A stretch of 50,582 nucleotides of DNA, taken from assembly GCA_964435235.1 (NCBI GenBank), contig CAYSXZ010000057.1, positions 1 through 50,582 on the forward strand, read 5' to 3'. Below the pieces are notes generated by a model. The model saw only the letters and a program-made list of their open reading frames with translations, searched no databases and was not told where the DNA came from. Both the position numbers and the translations under genes were made by a program. The DNA is from Candidatus Micrarchaeota archaeon. Its GTDB lineage: Archaea > Micrarchaeota > Micrarchaeia > Anstonellales > Bilamarchaeaceae. Of this stretch, positions 7,216 through 42,951 are shown in pieces (positions within the stretch are counted from its first letter, which is position 1; every line of letters starts with the position of its first letter).

Positions 7216-7821
7216 ATGCTTAAGCAGAACGAAAGATTGAAAGAGATCCAAGTTAAAATTGGGGAAATCTTTTCATTTATTCCTCTTAGCCCTAATCAAT
7301 GGACCATAATTTCCATAGTAGTTGCAATAACAGGTGCGTACGAAATAATAACAGTCAATCTTATTTATGGTCTTTTTCTCTTTGTCATAGCAGGAGCAAT
7401 CGATATGTTAGATGGGGCGATTGCAAGAGCGCGAGGAGAAGAAACAAAACTAGGAGCTTTTCTGGATGGGGTATGTGACAGGTTTGTAGAAGCGTTATTT
7501 CTCTTCGCAATGATGTTTTATCCATTACCATTCATATGGCTTGACTCGAAAATCTGGCTTGCTCTTCTCATTTTTTTTGGTAGTTGTATGCCGTCTTATG
7601 TAAGGGCATATGCTGACCATACAGGAGTGCTAAGCCATGAAGAGGCAAAAAAGCTAGGAGGGGTATTTGAAAGAAGCGAGAGAATAATTCTTCTTGCCTT
7701 AGGAATGTCTGCCGGGATACTAATTTCGATGGATTATTTTGTTTATTCTGTAATAATCGCCATAATCCTCTCGATAATAACTGTGATTCAAAGAACTTGT
7801 GTGATAGCAAGAAAAGCATAG
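7216..7821 (+). CDS. CDP-alcohol phosphatidyltransferase family protein (archaeal lipid head-group synthase)
   Basis: DMLDGAIARARGEETKLGAFLDGVCDR matches DGx2ARx8Gx3Dx3D. Polytopic membrane protein. Start chosen at the ATG at 7216 (the ORF opens at 7126 with GTG). Confidence 0.85.
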   Translation: MLKQNERLKEIQVKIGEIFSFIPLSPNQWTIISIVVAITGAYEIITVNLIYGLFLFVIAGAIDMLDGAIARARGEETKLGAFLDGVCDRFVEALFLFAMMFYPLPFIWLDSKIWLALLIFFGSCMPSYVRAYADHTGVLSHEEAKKLGGVFERSERIILLALGMSAGILISMDYFVYSVIIAIILSIITVIQRTCVIARKA

Positions 7822-7916
7822 GTTTAAATATTACCATTGAGCCAATAATAACAGGAACCCATTGATCGGCTTTTGGCTGAGTTTGAATGGGTTAGTATAA
7901 AATAGGTGAATATAGA

Positions 7917-8072
7917 ATGGGAGAAAGTGAAGGCGGATACGGCCGCGAAAGGAAGATGTACGATGCAGTCTGTGCAAAGTGCGGACAGCCTTGCCAGGTG
8001 CCGTTCCAGCCTACTGAAGGAAGACCGGTCTATTGTAGAAACTGCTATAGACCAAGAAGACCAAGATACTAA
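7917..8072 (+). CDS. Small CxxC-x17-CxxC zinc-ribbon protein (51 aa)
   Basis: Hand-translated: MGESEGGYGRERKMYDAVCAKCGQPCQVPFQPTEGRPVYCRNCYRPRRPRY. CxxC, exactly 17 residues, then CxxC. Below the ORF-track size cutoff and in a different frame from the listed ORF 7906-8331. Confidence 0.75.
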   Translation: MGESEGGYGRERKMYDAVCAKCGQPCQVPFQPTEGRPVYCRNCYRPRRPRY

Positions 8073-8172
8073 AATAAAGGATGATGTTTATTTTAGGAAT
8101 ATTGGCGGATTAATGTTCTTTTGTTTTTTGATTTTATTTGATACTGAGATATCTTCGGTATCTAGTGATAAT

Positions 8173-8331
8173 ATGTTTGAAGGCGATAACAGTTGCGCTG
8201 TATGTAAAAAGGAATTAGACGAAAAGGAACGTGTTTATAGAAAAAGCCTCGTAGGAAAAACTTACACATTCTGCAAGAAATGTTTAGAAACAAAAAAAGA
8301 AGAGGTGCAAAAAATTCTGGAGCAGGATTAG
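8173..8331 (+). CDS. Small zinc-ribbon-like protein (52 aa)
   Basis: C-terminal part of ORF 7906-8331: MFEGDNSCAVCKKEL...TFCKKCLETKKEE with two CxxC pairs. The start is uncertain (8113 or 8173). Confidence 0.4.
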   Translation: MFEGDNSCAVCKKELDEKERVYRKSLVGKTYTFCKKCLETKKEEVQKILEQD

Positions 8332-9177
8332 TTATTCATGCGTTGTTACGAGGAACGCCCACCAAGGCCCTTGCTCTCTTTCCACAATCCCGCTTTGAGC
8401 ATGCACCCGTGCTTGTATAGGTAGTTCTACATCAAACAGCCAGAGAAGTTTGCCTGATCTTGTACCGTTTATATCATAATATGGATTTTCATTCTCTACA
8501 GTTAGCTGTACAGCATCTATTCTCTTCAATCTTATTCGCTCATGGAGTTGCGCTGGAGTAATTGTCACTGCAGTTTCATTCTCGCCAATAAGTATCCTAT
8601 CATTGAACAGACGAACCGTTTCCCTTGTTCTTACTATCGTACCATTCTCTTCTATTTCAATTTCCTCTTCTTTCGTTGAATTTATTTTAAAAACGTGCTC
8701 TCTTTCTTCAAGCCTCACCCTAACCGGCATTGTCGCATTAAGTGGTATGGTTTCGTTCTCAACATTAATTACGTGCGTTCGTGCGATTATACTTACAATC
8801 TGCCCTTGTGGAACTTCGAGCGCGCCACTCTTTCTCTGTTCTATTATCTCACGCACTTCAGTTGCAATGCCAACGCTAGTTTCACTTCCTACTGCCTGAC
8901 CTTCTCTCGTCCTTTTCCTCAGCGGTTCAGGCTCTCGCGGCTCTGGCAATGGAGATCTTCTTTCTTCAGGTGGAGCTACTCTTTCTGGTCTGCAATCCTC
9001 TGGACATGTTTCTGCTGTTTCCGGACACGGACAACCTATCGCCGTGCACACTATTTCTTGGCAGATTCCATCCCCGCACATGTCCCTACAGGTCTCGAGT
9101 GTTGCGTTGTCTCTAGGAATTGCCATGGCTGTTCCAAAAACCAACAAAAGCCCTAATAACATTAAAATTCCTTTCAT
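8332..9177 (-). CDS. Secreted Cys-rich hypothetical protein
   Basis: Signal peptide MKGILMLLGLLLVFGTAMA, then CRDMCGDGICQEIVCTAIGCPCPETAETCPEDC. No family recognised. Confidence 0.6.
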   Translation of the reverse strand: MKGILMLLGLLLVFGTAMAIPRDNATLETCRDMCGDGICQEIVCTAIGCPCPETAETCPEDCRPERVAPPEERRSPLPEPREPEPLRKRTREGQAVGSETSVGIATEVREIIEQRKSGALEVPQGQIVSIIARTHVINVENETIPLNATMPVRVRLEEREHVFKINSTKEEEIEIEENGTIVRTRETVRLFNDRILIGENETAVTITPAQLHERIRLKRIDAVQLTVENENPYYDINGTRSGKLLWLFDVELPIQARVHAQSGIVEREQGPWWAFLVTTHE

Positions 9178-12780: not shown

Positions 12781-13602
12781 TTACACCAAAGTAAGAAGGT
12801 TCACAAAACAGCTAGCAGCATCCTCAAAAAACTCCTTTCCGAATTTATAAATCTTTGATACATCTGGCATCATAGATTTTCTTATGTCTGTTTCTATGCG
12901 TTCGAAATTTTTCTCAGAGCTAATATACTCAATTGTTTTTTTAACAACCTCTTTTCTCCAACCCTCAAAACCATACGTCTCTGCTTTTTTTCGAAGTTCC
13001 TTGGCGGTCGGTAACTCTTTGAGTACGTTTTTTATATAAAGGATATCGAATAAATCCGTTCCTTTTAATGAATCCCTTTTATCAATACGATCAAGCGTTG
13101 CGACGATCTTGTCTGCAAATATCTCGCGAGGTTGTTCTACAAGAAGCGGATAAAATTCACCCTTTGTGATTATCGGAAATAGAGATATCTGATCCCCAAT
13201 TTCTATTACACCGCGTATCTCTGAATTTTTCTTCCAATACTTTATTCTCTCTACTACTTTCAAATTTTTGTTGTTGTTTCTCGCTTTTTCTACATTGTAT
13301 TCCTTTTCTAGCACGTCACAAATAGCACTAACAACCCACGTAAGGTTTACTTTTTTATCTTTTAAGACAAAATCGAGATCATACGAATACCGCGGCGAAG
13401 AGTATATAAAATGAAGTGCATTTCCTCCTTGAAAGACAATATTCTCTGAAAGATTCTTCTCTTTTGCTATCCTAAACGTAGCGTCCCTTGCGAGTTCCTC
13501 CTTTTCTCTAAGTACATTTATCTTTTGCTTTAATTGATGGGTAGATATTTTCATCACACCTCTATTGCATTTCTCGATATTAATAATATTACATGTTGCC
13601 AT
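12781..13602 (-). CDS. Nucleotidyltransferase AbiEii/AbiGii-like (type IV toxin family, DUF1814)
   Basis: FQGGNALHFIYSSPRYSYDLDFV matches the GG(T/N)AL...R.S.D(L/I)DF core of AbiEii nucleotidyltransferases. An alternative start is at 13554. Confidence 0.65.
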   Translation of the reverse strand: MATCNIINIEKCNRGVMKISTHQLKQKINVLREKEELARDATFRIAKEKNLSENIVFQGGNALHFIYSSPRYSYDLDFVLKDKKVNLTWVVSAICDVLEKEYNVEKARNNNKNLKVVERIKYWKKNSEIRGVIEIGDQISLFPIITKGEFYPLLVEQPREIFADKIVATLDRIDKRDSLKGTDLFDILYIKNVLKELPTAKELRKKAETYGFEGWRKEVVKKTIEYISSEKNFERIETDIRKSMMPDVSKIYKFGKEFFEDAASCFVNLLTLV

Positions 13603-14960: not shown

Positions 14961-14993
14961 TTCAGTTGTCATTTTTTGTATAATTTCGAAAAA
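14961..14993. repeat. Direct repeat copy A flanking the Fic gene
   Basis: ttcagttgtcattttttgtataatttcgaaaaa. It recurs at 15961-15994 with a 1-nt indel. Confidence 0.9.
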
Positions 14994-15873
14994 GATATCT
15001 CTTGTACTCTTTAACGTATCTTTTGAAAAACCATTGTAAAAAGATTTCATCCATTTTTTTAATTTGTGCTCTTTCTAAAGCATTATAATAACCAACTCTT
15101 TTTTCATAGAGAATATTTAGCATTGGATATCCGTGTTTATGTAAAATAAAATTCATCATTAGCCTACTTATCCTTCCATTACCATCTGTAAATGGGTGTA
15201 TGGTCACAAATTTTAAATGTGCTAAAGCAGCTAATTCTACTGGATGCAATTTCTTCTTGTTTTTATTGTACCACCTAAAAAACTCTCTTAATAAAGGATA
15301 AATTTCAACTGGAAATGGTGGTGTAAATTTACTTCCTGATATAGCCACTTGATGTTCTCTAATCCTTCCAGCTATCTCTGGCTTGGATGCTTCAAACAAT
15401 TTTTTATGCCAATATAAAATAACTTGCAAAGTTAAGTCTTTCTCATATTGTAGCATTTCATAAAAGACCTTTTGATGTCCTTCTGCCTCTTTAACATCAT
15501 ACAAAGGTTTAAGCTTTGGTGTTATTCCTTTTTCCAGTAAATCTGCTGTTTCTCTTAACGTTAATTTTGAACCTTCTATTTTTTGTGTATCATAAGTAAA
15601 TCTGATTGAAAAAGTTTCAATTTCTTTTTCTCTTGCAGCTTTTGGTAATTGCTTAAACTCTTTAGAAAAATTTTTCTTTATTCTATCAAATAGCGGATAC
15701 CACTTCTCTCTATAAATTTCAGAAAGAAATTCTCTTTTTATTTCATCAATATTTTTTGGTAGTGTTTTGCCTATATATTTTTCCCTTTTCTCTACTTTTT
15801 TACCTTTTCTTATGGTGTGCTCTAAATAGTAATAAGTTTGTCTTCCTATAACTTTCTTTCTTATACTTACCAT
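14962..15873 (-). CDS. Fic/DOC family protein (AMPylase-type)
   Basis: HPFTDGNGRISRLMMNFIL is the canonical Fic motif HPFx(D/E)GNGRxxR. Start taken at the ATG at 15873 (MVSIRKK). An aaatttataaata TATA-like box lies about 25-35 nt upstream. Confidence 0.9.
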   Translation of the reverse strand: MVSIRKKVIGRQTYYYLEHTIRKGKKVEKREKYIGKTLPKNIDEIKREFLSEIYREKWYPLFDRIKKNFSKEFKQLPKAAREKEIETFSIRFTYDTQKIEGSKLTLRETADLLEKGITPKLKPLYDVKEAEGHQKVFYEMLQYEKDLTLQVILYWHKKLFEASKPEIAGRIREHQVAISGSKFTPPFPVEIYPLLREFFRWYNKNKKKLHPVELAALAHLKFVTIHPFTDGNGRISRLMMNFILHKHGYPMLNILYEKRVGYYNALERAQIKKMDEIFLQWFFKRYVKEYKRYLFRNYTKNDN

Positions 15874-15960
15874 AATAAAATTTACCCCTACATATTTATA
15901 AATTTTAGTATTTTTGATAAAAAGTAGAGATAAAGACAAAAGCTTTTTTAAGAATAAAAT

Positions 15961-16520: not shown

Positions 16521-16541
16521 AATGTATCAAAAGTTGCTCAC

Positions 16542-16628
16542 GCCCTCATAGTCTAGCCTGGATTTGCATATCAGAAAGGACACGGGCTTCCGGAGCCTGT
16601 GAGCTGGGTTCGAATCCCAGTGAGGGCG
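16542..16628 (+). tRNA. tRNA-Arg(CCG) with a 13-nt non-canonical intron in the D-loop
   Basis: Hand-folded. Acceptor gccctca/tgagggc plus discriminator g. D stem gtct/ggac. Anticodon stem cgggc/gcctg with loop ttCCGga. T arm ctggg-ttcgaat-cccag. It is 87 nt rather than about 74 because of the extra D-loop sequence. Confidence 0.85.
16564..16576 (+). other. Predicted 13-nt BHB intron in the tRNA-Arg D-loop
   Basis: Central helix ctgg (16558-61) / tcag (16571-74), with 3-nt bulges att and aaa. Cutting after the second bulge nt gives the D-arm GUCU-AGCCUGGAUA-GGAC. Confidence 0.6.
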
Positions 16629-16660
16629 TTTTAATTTTAAAATTAAATTGAAAAAATATT

Positions 16661-17918: not shown

Positions 17919-18317
17919 CTATTTCAGTAGCTTGGCTTTTTCATAATATCTGAAATGGGGATCCTTTGAAACTATCAGGGCGTTTTCATTTTTTCCATGC
18001 ACCATAATCACGCAATCTGCCAGAGAAATTTCCTTGTCTTTCTTTTTTAAATCAGAATGTAGTTCTCCTGCTTTTTCTGCTACATCTTGATTTAAATCCA
18101 GTATCGTGCAATTTTGTTTTAGCACTCTTACAAACTTTGCCGGATCCTTGTTTGCTCTTCTTAATTTGCTGATTAATTCTGCCATAACTAACGCAGGTAT
18201 GAAATTTGATGTACCTTCGTCTATAAATAGTTCTTTTACTTCGCTACCGCTTTCGCTACCCAGAAAAAATTCTATTAGGGCAGATGTATCAAAGATTATG
18301 TTATTCTCTCCACTCAT
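17919..18317 (-). CDS. vapC: PIN-domain toxin VapC
   Basis: IIFDTSALIEFF N-terminus (first acidic residue) and conserved D/E later. 132 aa. Overlaps the upstream antitoxin ORF. Confidence 0.85.
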   Translation of the reverse strand: MSGENNIIFDTSALIEFFLGSESGSEVKELFIDEGTSNFIPALVMAELISKLRRANKDPAKFVRVLKQNCTILDLNQDVAEKAGELHSDLKKKDKEISLADCVIMVHGKNENALIVSKDPHFRYYEKAKLLK

Positions 18318-25185: not shown

Positions 25186-26078
25186 GGACAAAATTGCGAA
25201 ATTTTGTCCGCATTGGAAATCATCAAATTTTCAATGCAACTAGATATGCAAACCACCTAGAGGATGGCTAGGCTTATGCCCGCACGGTCACGCGGCAAGC
25301 TGCGATAAGCCTTGGGTAGCCGCAAGCAGGCTTTGAACCAAGGGTCTGACTGCGCACAGTAATGTGCAGCAACTCCCCGAAATGAAGCGTCTTAGTAGGG
25401 GAAGGAAAAGAAACCAATAGGGATCCGGTTAGTAACAGAGAGTGAAAGCCGGAGAGATCAAGCTGAATTCCTCTGCAGTAATGCAGAGGTAGATGTGGCG
25501 GGGTGCAACCTCCTTCTCATCCGAAGTTGCTTGGAACAGCGCACCTTAGCGGGTGATAGTCCCGTAGGAGAAGGAAGGAGGTGCTAACCAAGAAGAGTAG
25601 TGTCTCTTGGATAAGAGGCATGAAGATGGGTGTATCAACATCCAATTCTAAATATGGGGCATAAGACCGATAGCGAAACAGTAGCGCGAGCGAACGCCGA
25701 AAAGTACCCCGGAAGGGGTGTGAAAAGATCCTAAAACTAGGTGGTGACAGCATGATACGGCACGAAAGGGCAGGGCTGCAGAAGCGACCTCTGGTAACGG
25801 AGGAAGCGATGCAGTTTAACCAGTGTCGTGTCTTTCTTCTCGAAGCAAGAGCCAGGGAGTTTGTGGGCGTGGCGAGGCGAAAGCCGAAGCGAAAGCGAGT
25901 GTCCGCAGCGCAGCAATGCGTGAGGGACGTCGTGGTAACTCGCGACCAGTCACTCTCACAAGACCCGAAGCCATTGTGATCTACGCCCGAGCAGGACGAA
26001 GCCAACCTGACGGTTGGTGGAGGTCCGCAACTAGTGGTAGTATATTCTCCTTAGGTGACTTGGGTGTAGGGGTGATAG

Positions 26079-26123
26079 ACAACCTTTGTCCAGGTTTTTA
26101 GGAAGGGACAAAAGTTGGTCAGT
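26079..26123 (+). other. BHB mini-intron I1 (45 nt, loop AGGUUUUUAGGAAG), 23S domain II
   Basis: Central helix tgat (26073-76) / gtca (26118-21). Bulges aga and gtt. 12-position stem caacctttgtcc/ggacaaaagttg (one C-A mismatch). Removal leaves GGGGUGAUAG|UCCUGUCGAAC. Confidence 0.75.
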
Positions 26124-26970
26124 TCCTGTCGAACGTGGCAATAGCGGGTTCCCCTCGAAATGTGTCTCAGCACAGCGTCTCTGGAGAATGATGTGGAGGT
26201 AGAGCACTGATTAGACAGAGCGGTACCGAAAGGTATCACTGTCTTTTCAAACTCCGAATGCCACATCTTCGTAGAAGGAGGCAGTGGGGTTGCCGGAGTA
26301 AGTTTGGCGACCTATTCGTGAACGAACGTACGTAAGGTTAAGGACCCTAAATTCTGACTAAGTGTTAATCGCAAAGGAGTCTCCATTCGAAAACAACCGG
26401 GAGGTAGGCTTAGAAGCAGCCATCCTCTAAACAACGCGTAATAGCGGACCGGTCGAGAGTGCAGACTCTGAAGATTCACGGGACTAAGTCAGATTCCGAT
26501 ACCTTACCCAGGCCAAAAGCCTTGGACTAGGGGGGCGAACGGGAAGCGTAGAAGTTAGGCCGTGAGGTCTAATGGAGCGACCTGTTATGAATATCCTGGT
26601 GTTAGTAGCAGCATATCTGGATGAGAATTCCAGACACCTTATAGAGCAAGGTTTCCTCAGCCACGTTCTTCAGCTGAGGGTTAGGCGATCCTAAGAACTT
26701 AGGTAACTCCGAAAGTTCGAAATTAGGGAAGCCGGTTAATATTCCGGCCCTGCAGAGGTAGGTGCGGCAACGCGTGCCATTCTCTGACTCCTTTGGATAG
26801 GTGAAGCGGCTACGGCCGTCTGAGGAGAGTAAACTCGTGGAGTCTCATTATGAGGAGAAGCGGGCGAAACTCTAAGGGGAAACTTCATCGAATCCAGGGG
26901 ACCATGAAAAACGAGAATGGATCGATCCTCTGCAATCGTACCGAGAACTAGTACAGGTGCTCTAGCTGAA

Positions 26971-27017
26971 ATCCAAAGAACAGGTGTTCTTTGTCTGTCC
27001 TGTTTTTTGAACAGTAC
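26971..27017 (+). other. BHB mini-intron (47 nt, different loop UGUUCUUUGUCUGU)
   Basis: Central helix gctg (26965-68) / cagt (27012-15). Bulges aaa and aca. 13-position stem. Removal gives ACAGGUGCUCUAGCUGAA|AAGGCUAAGGUG, the same length as the reference ACAGGUGGUCAGGUAGAGAAUACCAAGGCG. Confidence 0.65.
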
Positions 27018-27239
27018 AAGGCTAAGGTGTGGCAGGATAACTCAGACAAGGGAACTCGGCAAGTTAGCCCCGTATCTTAGGTAGAAGGGGTGCCTTCGCA
27101 TCGGTATGCGGAGGTCGCAGTGACAAGGGGGGAGCGACTGTTTACCAAAAACACAGGTCATCGCAAAGCCGAAAGGCTGTGTATGATGGCTGACGCCTGC
27201 TCACTGCCAGTACCTGAACGTCCGTTTCAAAGCTTTGAA

Positions 27240-27270
27240 AGCGGGTGCTTTCAAAATTGCCCGCCAAGGC
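27240..27270 (+). other. Candidate 31-nt BHB intron near the helix-68 apex
   Basis: Central helix tttg (27234-37) / caag (27265-68). Bulges aaa and gcg. Inner helix gcgggt/tgcccgc. The mature sequence cannot be validated from memory. Confidence 0.3.
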
Positions 27271-27323
27271 GGACAACGGAAAGAAGGGCTGGTAAAGAGC
27301 GGGGGTAACTCTGACCCTCTTAA

Positions 27324-27360
27324 CATTCGGCTTCCTAGCTACTAGCCGAATGAAGAGAGA
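27324..27360 (+). other. 37-nt hairpin insertion splitting the universal CUUAA|GGUAGCG block (E. coli 1928/1929)
   Basis: ccctcttaa-[cattcggct tcctagctact agccgaatg aagagaga]-ggtagcg. Helix tctt/gaga, with a 2x2 internal loop in place of a clean 5' bulge (relaxed BHB). Confidence 0.6.
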
Positions 27361-27729
27361 GGTAGCGTAATACCTCGCCGCTTAATTGGCGGCTTGCATG
27401 AATGGCGTAACGACTCCCCCACTGTCCCTGTCTGGGACCTGGTGAACTCACTGTCCGGTGAAGATGCCGGAGACTTCCAGAGGGAAACGAAGACTCCATG
27501 GAGCTTTACCATAGCCTAATGTTGTGGTGCGAGGTTTGCTACCAAGAGTAAGTGGGAGCCATCGAAGCAATTCTTTCGGGAATTGTGGAGGCGAAAGTGT
27601 TACACCACTTAGTAGATCTTGCATTGCTTACCCGCAAGGGAACAGCGTTAGGTGGATGGTTCGGCTGGGGCGGTACGCCCTCGAGAAAGGAACAAGGGCG
27701 CCCAATGCTCTGCTCAGTCCGGTCAGAAA

Positions 27730-27772
27730 AAACTTTTCACAAGGTTTTTAGGAAATGGGAAAAGTTTTTGAA
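27730..27772 (+). other. BHB mini-intron I2 (43 nt, loop AAGGUUUUUAGGAAAU)
   Basis: Central helix caga (27724-27) / tttg (27767-70). Bulges aaa and aat. Removal gives UCCGGUCAGAAA|UCGGAUG, matching the archaeal GGGUCAGAAAUCC-type hairpin (about E. coli 2305-2311 by my count). Confidence 0.7.
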
Positions 27773-27940
27773 TCGGATGTAGAGGGTGAAAGACAAATGC
27801 AGGGCTGACTGTGTTCCTAAAAGCGTGGAACGCAGAGACGAAAGTCGGGCTTAGCGAACCTTGATATCCTTTTGATGGGGATTCAAGCTGTCAGACAAGC
27901 TACCCTGGAGGTAACAGGCTCGTCGCGGGCGAGAGTACAC

Positions 27941-28012
27941 AAAACTTTGCTTATGTTTTCTTAGGGCAAAGTTTTATCAAAGGTCCTTAGAGTAAAACTC
28001 AAGACCGTACAA
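27941..28012 (+). other. About 72-nt two-hairpin insertion at the helix-89 apex (E. coli 2477/2478)
   Basis: Helix gtac (27935-38) / gtac (28007-10) with bulges aca and aaa. Removal gives CGAGAGUACAC|AUCGAC versus E. coli CAAGAGUUCAUAUCGAC. The inner helix is not contiguous, so the boundaries are tentative. Confidence 0.5.
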
Positions 28013-28067
28013 ATCGACCCCGCGGTTTGGTACATCGCTGTCGGCTTGGGACATCCTGGTGGTGCAG

Positions 28068-28110
28068 ACGTTTTTTGCCAGATTTTTAGGAAGGGCAAAA
28101 ATCGGCATAA
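28068..28110 (+). other. BHB mini-intron I3 (43 nt, loop AGAUUUUUAGGAAG), helix-91 apex
   Basis: Central helix gtgc (28062-65) / gcat (28105-08). Bulges aga and aag. Removal gives CCUGGUGGUGCAG|GAGCCACCAAGG, 25 nt as in E. coli CCUGGGGCUGAAGUAGGUCCCAAGG. Confidence 0.75.
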
Positions 28111-28131
28111 GAGCCACCAAGGGTTGGGTTG

Positions 28132-28176
28132 ACATGAATTAGTCAGGTTTTTAGGAAGGGCTAATTCATGGCCCAA
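28132..28176 (+). other. BHB mini-intron I4 (45 nt, loop AGGUUUUUAGGAAG) inside the A-loop (helix 92)
   Basis: Central helix gggt (28126-29) / gccc (28171-74). Bulges tga and aat. 12-bp stem. Removal gives GGGUUGGGUUG|UUCAUCCAUUAAAG, which restores the UGUUC loop. Confidence 0.8.
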
Positions 28177-28282
28177 TTCATCCATTAAAGTCCCACATGA
28201 GCTGGGTTCAGTACGTCGCGAGACAGTACGGTAGTATCTTCTGGAAGCGTTGCCTCTTGAGAGGAAGGATCCTTGAGTACGA

Positions 28283-28325
28283 ACAGATTTTGTCAGGTTT
28301 TTAGGAAGGACAAAATCTGGTATAA
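28283..28325 (+). other. BHB mini-intron I5 (43 nt, loop AGGUUUUUAGGAAG) inside the sarcin-ricin loop (helix 95)
   Basis: Central helix gtac (28277-80) / gtat (28320-23). Bulges gaa and aag. 11-bp stem. Removal gives AGUACGA|GAGGAAC. Confidence 0.8.
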
Positions 28326-28545
28326 GAGGAACGGGGATCCGGCGCCTCTGGTTTACCGGTTGTGAATTGCACCGCCGGGCAGCTACGCGCCATGTCGATA
28401 AGACCTGAAAGCATCTAAGGTCGAAGCGACTCTCAAGACGAGGAGGCAAATGCCGCGGATAGCAGATCCGTTTGATAGGACCGGGGTGTAAGTGGTAAGG
28501 GAAACCGAGCCATTCAGCCTGCGGTTACTAAAGGCTTATTTCGAA

Positions 28546-28590
28546 ACCCATTACTGACCGTTGGGTACTTCCTTTTCTGTTATCTTTTTG
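28546..28590 (+). other. 3' strand of the pre-23S rRNA processing stem
   Basis: Complementary to 25113-25185 (see the 5' strand entry). Confidence 0.75.
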
Positions 28591-41928: not shown

Positions 41929-42951
41929 ATGTCGATGGGGGGCGTGAACAACAAAAAACTTATGCTGCATTATTCAACGGCAAATTTAACAAAGAAAGAA
42001 AGAGGAATAGCGCAGGCTATTCTTCCTCTTCTTGAAGAAAAACTTGAGCATTCGGAACGAGTTAAGAAGAGCGCAGAAGAATTTCAAAAGATAGCAAAGA
42101 AGATTACGCGTTTCAGACTTTTTGAAACCCTTCGTAAGATGGGGTGGGAACCTAAAGATGCTTCTAAGACTGCACTTAATAGAGTAGTTCCAGACCTTAT
42201 ACCGAAGCGTACCATGGAGGAGGCGTGGGAGTTAGTTACGAAGAATATGGGTCTTGTAGACGCCGCAATAACTTACTCGAAATTGAATGATTATTTGAAA
42301 TGGGATAGTGAATATGTGCGAAGCATAATAATAGAACAGTTGTTCATGACGGCTCTTTACTGGGATAAAGAAAAAGGTGCGTTTTCTACGTATTTCTTTT
42401 CAACGATGAAAAAGTGCAGAAACCACCTAAGAGAGAAAGCGAGTCTGATACGATTGCCGATGCATGTAATCGGAAAACTGAATAGGATGGATATTGAAAA
42501 ACATAAAGAGCCAAACATCCGATCAAGCGAGCTTGCCAAACGCATGAATGTAAAGCCAGAAAAATTAAATGATCTAACGAAGCTGAAAAAAATACGTTAT
42601 GCAAAGGTATTAAATCTAAGCAGGCTTTTATATTCTGAGACAGATGAAAGCGATGATAAGATCTCGATGAGATTTAACTTAATAAAAGAAAACGAGCCAG
42701 ACTTAACCAATGCAATCGATCAAAAGAACCTAAAAAGAATTATCGAAAGAGTATTGAAGACTCTTGAACCACGCGAAGCAAAGGTTTTGAGGATGCGCTA
42801 CGATTTAGATGATGAAGGTGGAAAAACACTGGAAAAATGCGGTAATGAGTTTGGCGTTACTAGAGAAAGAGTAAGACAAATAGAAACTTGCGCACTTAAA
42901 AAACTCCGCCATTCGGCCTACTCTAAGATTCTCAGAGAATTTATTCTTTGA
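41929..42951 (+). CDS. Bacterial-type RNA polymerase sigma-70 family protein
   Basis: Region 2/3.0-like FSTYFFSTMKKCRNHLREKASLIRLPMHVIGKLNRM (compare [30 protein letters not shown]). Region 4.2-like LEPREAKVLRMRYDLDDEGGKTLEKCGNEFGVTRERVRQIETCALKKLRH. Confidence 0.85.
   Translation: MSMGGVNNKKLMLHYSTANLTKKERGIAQAILPLLEEKLEHSERVKKSAEEFQKIAKKITRFRLFETLRKMGWEPKDASKTALNRVVPDLIPKRTMEEAWELVTKNMGLVDAAITYSKLNDYLKWDSEYVRSIIIEQLFMTALYWDKEKGAFSTYFFSTMKKCRNHLREKASLIRLPMHVIGKLNRMDIEKHKEPNIRSSELAKRMNVKPEKLNDLTKLKKIRYAKVLNLSRLLYSETDESDDKISMRFNLIKENEPDLTNAIDQKNLKRIIERVLKTLEPREAKVLRMRYDLDDEGGKTLEKCGNEFGVTRERVRQIETCALKKLRHSAYSKILREFIL

Follow-up and report, generated by a model that had tools for sequence, protein, structure and literature searches.

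The origin and spread of bulge-helix-bulge (BHB) introns that lack a homing endonuclease are poorly understood, the main precedent being the similar introns in the tRNA genes of Thermoproteales. A contig of 50,582 nucleotides (nt) from a Candidatus Micrarchaeota archaeon (CAYSXZ010000057.1; the whole stretch is referred to below as the window) raises this question for ribosomal RNA (rRNA): its 23S rRNA gene carries five insertions of 43-45 nt, denoted here I1 to I5, which share an apical loop of the form AG(G/A)UUUUUAGGAA(G/A). What are these insertions, how did they come to occupy their sites and what does the loop do? We define the elements with this loop as loop family A. Considering all the evidence presented below, we lean slightly toward a composite interpretation, under which I1 to I5 would be mobile introns of a relaxed BHB type that contain no open reading frame (ORF) and are cut by the splicing endonuclease, with the loop as a selected cis element.

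Loop-sharing insertions in the 23S rRNA gene

The archaeal large subunit (LSU) rRNA was identified at positions 25236-28549 of the window on the plus strand (Rfam RF02540, 2260.8 bits), with a match that spans the full length of the model (1-2987), and this 23S gene is the host of all the introns discussed here. The source organism is a tiny symbiotic member of the Micrarchaeota (DPANN), and its 23S gene is single-copy-like. The insertions were located by local cmscan alignment against the rRNA model, which placed extra bases near positions 26079 (+45), 27730 (+43), 28068 (+43), 28132 (+45) and 28283 (+43), matching all five insertions, with their common loop, that had been reported in a first-pass annotation of the sequence. 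All five are real, and they are part of a larger set: the gene carries nine mini-introns (37-72 nt), all of which map to hairpin tips that are unpaired in the model. The exons add up to 2893 nt with 52.7% GC, and the mini-introns to 421 nt with 38.7% GC. An assembly artefact was ruled out as the source of the insertions given that two independent JGI assemblies (3300010308 and 3300022548) contain the same 3.7 kb of the rRNA region at 100% identity.

All five members of loop family A are on the plus strand; in the notation used here, square brackets enclose the two strands of the central helix, parentheses the bulges and the bar the predicted cut. I1 (45 nt, 26079-26123) is located in a 3-bp hairpin loop of domain II and reads [UGAU](AG|A), a 12-nt stem strand, the loop AGGUUUUUAGGAAG (26092-26105), the returning strand and [GUCA](GU|U). 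I2 (43 nt, 27730-27772) consists of [CAGA](AA|A), a stem with the loop AGGUUUUUAGGAAA (27742-27755) and [UUUG](AA|U). I3 (43 nt, 28068-28110), with [GUGC](AG|A), a stem with the loop AGAUUUUUAGGAAG (28080-28093) and [GCAU](AA|G), is inserted in a hairpin loop of domain V that we take to be that of helix 91 (E. coli numbering). I4 (45 nt, 28132-28176; z = -5.05), with [GGGU](UG|A), a 12-bp stem, the loop AGGUUUUUAGGAAG (28145-28158) and [GCCC](AA|U), lies in the hairpin loop GGGUUG|UUCAUCC, presumably the A-loop of helix 92. I5 (43 nt, 28283-28325; z = -4.12), with [GUAC](GA|A), an 11-bp stem, the loop AGGUUUUUAGGAAG (28295-28308) and [GUAU](AA|G), splits the sarcin-ricin loop sequence AGUACGA|GAGGAAC.

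Each intron was slid by 1-2 nt in both directions, and four exon bases, a 3-nt bulge, the stem, four tail bases and another 3-nt bulge were scored in every register. Only at the above coordinates do all four pairs of the central helix form together with a 3-nt 5' bulge (UGAU/GUCA, CAGA/UUUG, GUGC/GCAU, GGGU/GCCC and GUAC/GUAU for I1 to I5, respectively). The minimum-energy folds recover the central helix, the 3-nt 5' bulge, a stem of 10-12 bp and the open 14-nt loop. The spliced products are GGGGUGAUAG|UCCUGUCG, GGUCAGAAA|UCGGAUG, GGUGCAG|GAGCCACC, GGGUUG|UUCAUCC and GAGUACGA|GAGGAAC and, in multiple alignments, each of these is the uninterrupted sequence of relatives without the respective intron, so that the earlier claim that excision restores conserved 23S blocks is borne out by exact matches. 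Across the relatives, each intron is either wholly present or cleanly missing, and the empty sites have the predicted spliced sequence, for example, GGGGTGATAG|TCCTGTCG for I1, GGTGCAG|GAGCCACC for I3 and, in the sarcin-ricin loop, GAGTACGA|GAGGAAC for I5. In the contig L174 (L004, L174 and similar labels denote the loci and contigs compared with the window), the exon strand of I3 has changed from GUGC to GGGC and the tail from GCAU to GCCU, with a U-A pair replaced by G-C; at the sequence level, this single case is a compensatory double change that keeps the central helix.

The predicted cut after the second bulge nucleotide, also proposed in the first-pass annotation, agrees with the crystal structure of an epsilon2 EndA, in which the bulge is cleaved between its second and third nucleotides (PMC12397907). 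This three-unit endonuclease with a broad substrate range was discovered in the Micrarchaeota lineage (PMC3239211, PMC3488258). A 43-nt insert retained in the sarcin-ricin loop or in the neighboring hairpin loops of domain V is incompatible with a working ribosome. Given the geometry, the exact presence and absence, the compensatory change and the intolerant sites, the original identification of these insertions as BHB mini-introns is well supported, and I1 to I5 are very probably removed by EndA.

Distribution of the loop family and its probable transfer between lineages

The sequence AGRTTTTTAGGAAR has exactly five matches in the 50.6 kb window, all on the plus strand and all inside I1 to I5; with up to two mismatches, there are 15 matches compared with a shuffle mean of 4.2 (0/100 shuffles reach 15). 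The stem alignment agrees with the initial observation that the stems vary yet stay complementary whereas the loop is nearly invariant: among the five window copies, the loops are 94% identical and the stems 48%. No further copies of the family were detected in tRNA, mRNA or intergenic sequences of the window, either by pattern search or by a covariance model that included the stem and the loop. Such a scan had been suggested as a check of the first-pass annotation; in the window it returns only I1 to I5, and a weaker match beyond the window led to a variant form of the loop in L077 and L053 (see below).

Using an 18-nt loop pattern (YCAGRTTTTTAGGAAGGR) as the query against 185,579 species-representative genomes, we identified 85 loci. 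All matches in Micrarchaeota fall within rRNA genes, namely 16S in L030, L048 and L053, and 23S in L068 (two matches) and L077, and each of these carries a complementary stem of unrelated sequence; a looser loop search detected a second copy in L030, with an A-U closing pair. Most of the other loci are chance matches without a flanking stem, nearly all of them bacterial; the non-Micrarchaeota loci L014 and L093 have 9-10 flanking pairs. A scan of metagenomes yielded at least 119 loci, mostly chance matches, and added, among the matches listed, L174, L177, L199, L201 and L211. In 18 sequences aligned in register, 91.7% of the stem cells are paired and double-sided changes are found in 11 of the 12 pairs; the covariation score is 0.879 compared with 0.243 for shuffles (0/500 reach the observed value) and at most 0.153 for slid controls. 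The family consensus is 5'-AC...YC-loop-GR...G-NNNN-AA-3' with the loop AGGUUUUUAGGAAG, that is, a 5' AC, a C-G closing pair and a tail ending in AA. The variant found through the weaker covariance-model match, loop B (GGGUUUUUAGGCACGUR, or GGGUUUUUAGGCACGU(G/A)), is present on unrelated 11-bp stems in the 23S rRNA of L077 (6595-6632, minus strand) and in the 16S rRNA of L053 (314-351, plus strand), and its occurrence in both defines a common core, GGUUUUUAGG (G-G-U5-A-G-G). As judged from these matches, members of the family occupy many terminal hairpin loops in the two rRNAs, 16S and 23S, of several Micrarchaeota lineages.

No known RNA family corresponding to the element was found in Rfam at either gathering or E-value thresholds, and the searchable literature, the coverage of which is incomplete, yielded no description of a mini-intron family that is defined by a conserved apical loop, occurs in both rRNAs and undergoes lateral transfer. 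This agrees with the initial impression that no loop-defined family of rRNA mini-introns had been described, and the intron family is apparently new. Viral carriers were considered and rejected: in IMG/VR, loop A has one match, without a stem, and the four matches of loop B represent one phage terminator hairpin.

The exons of L004 are 97.9% identical to those of the window, compared with 88-89% for L008, L009 and L077, 84.3% for L174 and 76.3% for L068, and the intron distribution does not track this order. I1 is present in the window and in L174 (44/45 identical), with an intron that has a different stem at the same site in L068, and is missing in L004, L008 and L009. I2 is present in the window and in L174 (42/43 identical) and missing in L004, L177, L008, L009 and L068. 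I3 is more widespread, being present in the window, L004/L177, L174, L199 and L077 and missing in L008, L009 and L068. I4 and I5 are found only in the window and L004/L177 and are missing in all other relatives; the I4 loop of L004/L177 differs by one change, A to G, and the I5 site of the relatives without the intron reads GAGTACGAGAGGAAC.

Between the window and L174, I1 and I2 together are identical in 86 of the 88 positions, compared with 345 of the 400 exon positions that flank them (100 nt to either side of each intron); were the introns to diverge at the same rate as the exons, the binomial probability of no more than two differences among 88 nt would be about 4.5e-5. The differences between the flanks of I2 in the two sequences start within 12 nt of the intron. 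I3 is identical in 37 of the 43 positions in the same comparison and appears, from its sequence, to be vertically inherited. Because I1 and I2 are missing in L004, with its 98% identical exons, yet are almost the same in L174, their pattern suggests recent lateral transfer into the same sites between lineages with 84% identical exons.

A second family of mini-introns (AAAGCUUUGAAAnCGGGnGnUUUCAAAAUUGCCCGC) in the same gene also bears on mobility. Its member in the window, X3 (approximately 46 nt, 27228-27273, plus strand), has ambiguous boundaries, and a canonical BHB register was not found where these boundaries are expected. Two copies of this family, which by eye are about 85% identical, occupy separate 23S sites in L004 (approximately 7620-7666 and 7720-7766); the window shares just one of these, X3, and the extra copy is inserted after the position corresponding to 27171 in the window. 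The pair looks like the outcome of a recent intragenomic transposition, and the duplication would be independent support for the mobility of such elements. Altogether, lateral or intragenomic mobility of the mini-introns seems rather likely. The possibility that the stems are templated from the flanking exons was considered as well but is not general: an AATTCAT repeat spans the 3' junction of I4, and nothing similar is seen in the other four introns.

Possible role of the loop and alternative explanations

The loop of I3 has decayed to AGGUUUUCGAAG in L004/L177 and has been remodelled in L077 (stem CAGUUCG, U6 loop), and the ACG... start and the ...GGCAUAA end of the intron are unchanged in L004 and L077. 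Thus, the near invariance of the loop that was originally noted applies to the window copies but breaks down in these orthologs of I3. Because the orthologs with decayed loops keep intact BHB ends and persist, the loop is most likely not required for splicing; the decay points instead to a determinant of mobility, a handle for a protein or a function after splicing. Selection on the loop, which had been proposed from the window copies, is supported and extends beyond the window, the same loop being present on unrelated, covarying stems in other Micrarchaeota, in introns of both 16S and 23S genes, so that the loop appears likely to be under selection. That it is a functional cis element, as suggested by its maintenance by selection while the stems turn over, is the least certain part of the interpretation, and a specific role as a signal for propagation or handling, rather than splicing, is plausible but falls somewhat short of being probable. 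All family A copies contain a U5 tract, and runs of five or more T are absent from the 2893 nt of exons (two runs of four) compared with eight such runs in the 421 nt of introns. Oligo-T tracts are archaeal termination signals, and each family A loop therefore places a potential pause or termination signal in the rRNA gene.

The mechanism that we propose starts with the pre-rRNA, in which the intron would lengthen a native rRNA hairpin, so that, from base to tip, this hairpin would consist of the exon stem, the 4-bp helix between exon and tail, the 3-nt 5' bulge, a stem of 10-13 bp and the 14-nt loop. The splicing endonuclease (epsilon2 EndA, with its broad specificity) would cut after the second nucleotide of each bulge or loop, and RtcB would join the exons, with the intron freed, probably as a circle of 43-45 nt. 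A trans-acting factor would read the loop, either in the RNA or in the circle after excision, for propagation or handling of the element. A more far-reaching version, which we put forward only tentatively, is that non-autonomous BHB mini-introns colonize the rRNA genes of Micrarchaeota and spread between hairpin loops and lineages without an intron-encoded homing endonuclease, with GGUUUUUAGGAAG as the signal. Reverse splicing into exposed loops and capture by a trans-acting factor are the candidate pathways for such spread.

Several points weigh against this interpretation. The outer helix between the exons is weak, with 3 bp in I1 and no directly adjacent pair (0 bp) in I2 to I5, and only I1 has a clean 3-nt 3' bulge; the 3' site of the other four falls within a small internal loop or a looser stretch. 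The motif thus corresponds to a relaxed BHB and not to the textbook form: the geometry proposed in the first-pass annotation holds for the central helix and the 5' bulge of all five introns, and the strict 3' bulge for I1. Relaxed BHB and bulge-helix-loop forms of this kind are tolerated as substrates by the epsilon2 and (alpha-beta)2 enzymes (PMC12397907). Splicing, ligation and circularization are extrapolated from known enzymology, and Pfam scans of the 30 ORFs in the window detected no EndA, RtcB or candidate loop-binding protein, and no trans-acting factor, reverse transcriptase or endonuclease was identified. The members of the family beyond the window were found via the loop itself, so that the loop invariance among them is partly built in. 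The case for transfer depends on I1 and I2 and on a single metagenomic contig, L174, and very strong purifying selection combined with several losses could conceivably account for the pattern of these two introns instead. Finally, no recognizable protein-binding RNA motif was found in the loop, which makes the mobility determinant a hypothetical step; inspection, register by register, revealed no K-turn (kink-turn) or K-loop, C/D box or S-turn/sarcin-ricin-like signature in the loop and, in particular, inspection and Rfam found no C (RUGAUGA) or D (CUGA) boxes and no 5'-GA/5'-GA in the K-loop register in AGGUUUUUAGGAAG with its closing pairs.

Among the alternatives, the one that fares best, although we consider it unlikely, is that the loop aids the host or splicing, as a handle for a protein or an RNA chaperone that presents the hairpin to EndA or helps ribosome assembly, in which case selection on the loop would act through efficient processing rather than through spread. 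Archaeal Sm-like proteins bind oligo-U, and a U-tract-binding protein of this kind on GGUUUUUAGG would be the candidate; in line with such a handle, all predicted folds leave the loop single-stranded, the core is constant even in variant B, and the elements occupy functionally critical loops where fast and accurate removal matters. However, the I3 orthologs of L004 and L077 persist with their BHB ends after losing the loop sequence, four mini-introns of the same gene do without the loop, archaeal EndA needs only the BHB, and there is no tandem G.A signature of a K-turn or K-loop, nor C/D boxes, by inspection.

It is less probable again that the excised circular RNAs of 43-45 nt are themselves the functional product, as high-copy regulatory, decoy or sponge RNAs made together with rRNA. 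The uniform length would fit such a role, and so would the conservation of the intron-derived bulge nucleotides (the first is A and the last two are usually AA), due to which all circles would share one junction; BHB excision followed by RtcB ligation commonly gives stable circular introns in archaea (PMC3326292). Set against this, single copies lose the loop and the intron stays, and the search for a target gave nothing convincing. In 23S rRNA, the best complement is 9 nt long (UUCCUAAAA at 27817-27825, opposite UUUUAGGAA of the loop), which is within chance (estimated at about 0.07), and pairing of the loop with rRNA was accordingly rejected.

A loop without any function, the similarity of which reflects recent common descent or gene conversion, with the stems adapted to their sites, is quite improbable. 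Only the ends of the intron must match the exon context, and loops and stems change to a similar extent between the window and L004 (one loop and no stem changes in I4, none and one in I5, and many in both in I3). By contrast, the inner stems touch no exon and are nevertheless nearly unrelated from site to site (identity as low as 4%) and covary, whereas the loops are at least 86% identical, and the same loop is found in 16S and 23S rRNA of distinct lineages, with 23S exons that in L068 are 76% identical to those of the window. The remaining alternative, that the insertions are not spliced and represent retained expansion segments, sites of excision without religation (fragmented rRNAs occur in other lineages with small genomes, such as the Candidate Phyla Radiation (CPR) bacteria; PMC11270868), a pseudogene or an artefact, is extremely improbable, considering the full-length model match with 2260 bits, the disruption of the sarcin-ricin loop and other terminal hairpin loops of domain V, the BHB geometry and compensatory change that fit EndA processing, and the agreement of three assemblies.

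Other introns, genomic setting and known systems

Besides X3, the 23S gene contains three mini-introns without the family A loop, all on the plus strand, and these three, unlike X3, show the 4/4 BHB register. X2 (47 nt, 26971-27017; [GCUG](AA|A) ... [CAGU](AC|A)) folds into a pair of small hairpins, of which one carries a U6 loop, and in the alignment of relatives is found in the window alone. X4 (37 nt, 27323-27359; [CUCU](UA|A), a hairpin, [AGAG](AG|A); flanks CCCUCUUA and AGGUAGCG) occupies a site that is empty in L174 and L077 and contains other introns in L004, L009 and L008. X6 (72 nt, 27941-28012; [GUAC](AC|A) ... [GUAC](AA|A)) forms two hairpins, the first with a U-rich loop (UUAUGUUUUCUUAGG); its site is filled in all relatives but L174, which reads GAGAGTACACATCGACC.

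A third type of mini-intron (42-54 nt; AAACnCnnGACGA...GGCGGAAnGnGG; GACGA...GCGGAA) is found at two 23S sites in three lineages, namely after the position corresponding to 27684 of the window in L174 and L077 and after 26428 in L009. Several relatives, as opposed to the window, also contain large introns: L004 (approximately 7802-7960 and 8057-8731), L008 (approximately 8080-8880) and L068 (three of 640-710 nt). The sites are just after the positions corresponding to 27306 and 27395 in the window (27911 in L068), and a LAGLIDADG-like ORF is present at a large-intron site in L006-L008. Origin of the mini-introns as deletion remnants of such large ORF-bearing introns is unsupported, with no loop motif detected in the large introns of L004 or L008. 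Group I introns were rejected as well: an Rfam search found only the LSU rRNA and two noise matches (E >= 2), and the elements are far too short.

No 16S or 5S rRNA gene was detected in the 50 kb window by the Rfam scan, and the rRNA genes are thus unlinked. Downstream of the 23S gene is ppsA (phosphoenolpyruvate synthase), the protein homologs of which are labelled Micrarchaeota/Bilamarchaeaceae by their sources; the 23S-ppsA order is kept in several relatives, and the arrangement with ppsA-hjc directly downstream of the lone 23S gene is conserved in L004 and L006-L008. At 16541-16629 (plus strand), ARAGORN predicts a tRNA with an undetermined anticodon, which by eye is a tRNA-Arg with the anticodon loop UUCCGGA; about 13-15 extra bases in the D-loop, without the family A loop, suggest a short intron at a non-canonical position, and there is no Rfam tRNA match to this gene at E <= 0.1. 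The surrounding genes for an AbiEii-type nucleotidyltransferase toxin, a Fic/DOC protein and a PIN-domain protein (12781-13602, 14962-15939 and 17919-18317, all on the minus strand) may form a small defence or toxin-antitoxin island. A 340-amino-acid protein encoded at 41929-42951 (plus strand) contains a C-terminal Sigma-70 region 4 helix-turn-helix domain (E = 8.7e-17), which is unusual in an archaeal genome.

Crenarchaeal BHB introns in 23S rRNA were reportedly described by Kjems and Garrett in 1991. Introns of this type, including short non-coding ones, are well known in archaeal rRNA, for example, in the 16S and 23S genes of Thermoproteales (Jay & Inskeep 2015, PMC4496867); introns have been noted in 16S genes of Micrarchaeota (PMC5498576), and group I and BHB introns co-occur in the rRNA genes of these archaea (PMC6125680). 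The short crenarchaeal introns resemble the ones described here in their conserved rRNA positions, BHB core, lack of an ORF, presumed processing by the tRNA splicing endonuclease and patchy distribution, but differ in that here the apical loop is conserved across many sites and both rRNAs, the length is uniform (43-48 nt), and nine introns lie in one gene of a DPANN host with the epsilon2 EndA. In Thermoproteales, transposition of tRNA introns was reportedly deduced by Fujishima et al. in 2010; such transposition is discussed in PMC4090602 and PMC3488258. There too, related BHB introns are found at different positions and in different genes, pointing to gain without a homing endonuclease; here, by contrast, the hosts are rRNAs, the similarity is confined to the loop (in the X3 family, it extends over the whole length) and there is evidence of transfer between lineages. 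Homing-endonuclease BHB introns in rRNA, such as the I-DmoI intron of Desulfurococcus mobilis (Aagaard et al. 1995, cited in PMC4496867), likewise reside in 23S rRNA and move laterally into alleles in which the same site is empty, but carry a LAGLIDADG ORF that drives homing at the DNA level, whereas elements of 43-45 nt are too short for an ORF. Miniature inverted-repeat transposable elements (MITEs) and other non-autonomous mobile elements are small as well, lack an ORF, occur in multiple copies and combine a stem of inverted repeats with a conserved cis sequence that might be recognized in trans; unlike MITEs, the present elements show no target-site duplication when filled and empty sites are compared, their inverted repeats vary (48% identity), their removal would take place in the RNA and their insertions are confined to hairpin loops of rRNA.

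With nine introns, a family recognizable by its loop, filled and empty sites, and near-identical copies in a distant relative, the gain, loss and transfer of such elements become directly observable, and a 14-nt RNA element is defined that can be mutated, used as bait and tracked. The introns interrupt conserved stretches of 16S and 23S rRNA of the kind used for universal primers and probes; the rRNA genes of DPANN metagenome-assembled genomes are longer and more complex as a result, which affects their detection and classification. If the mini-introns are indeed mobile, with the loop as their signal, they would provide a tractable natural system for the study of the gain of archaeal introns and, by extension, of introns of the tRNA type.

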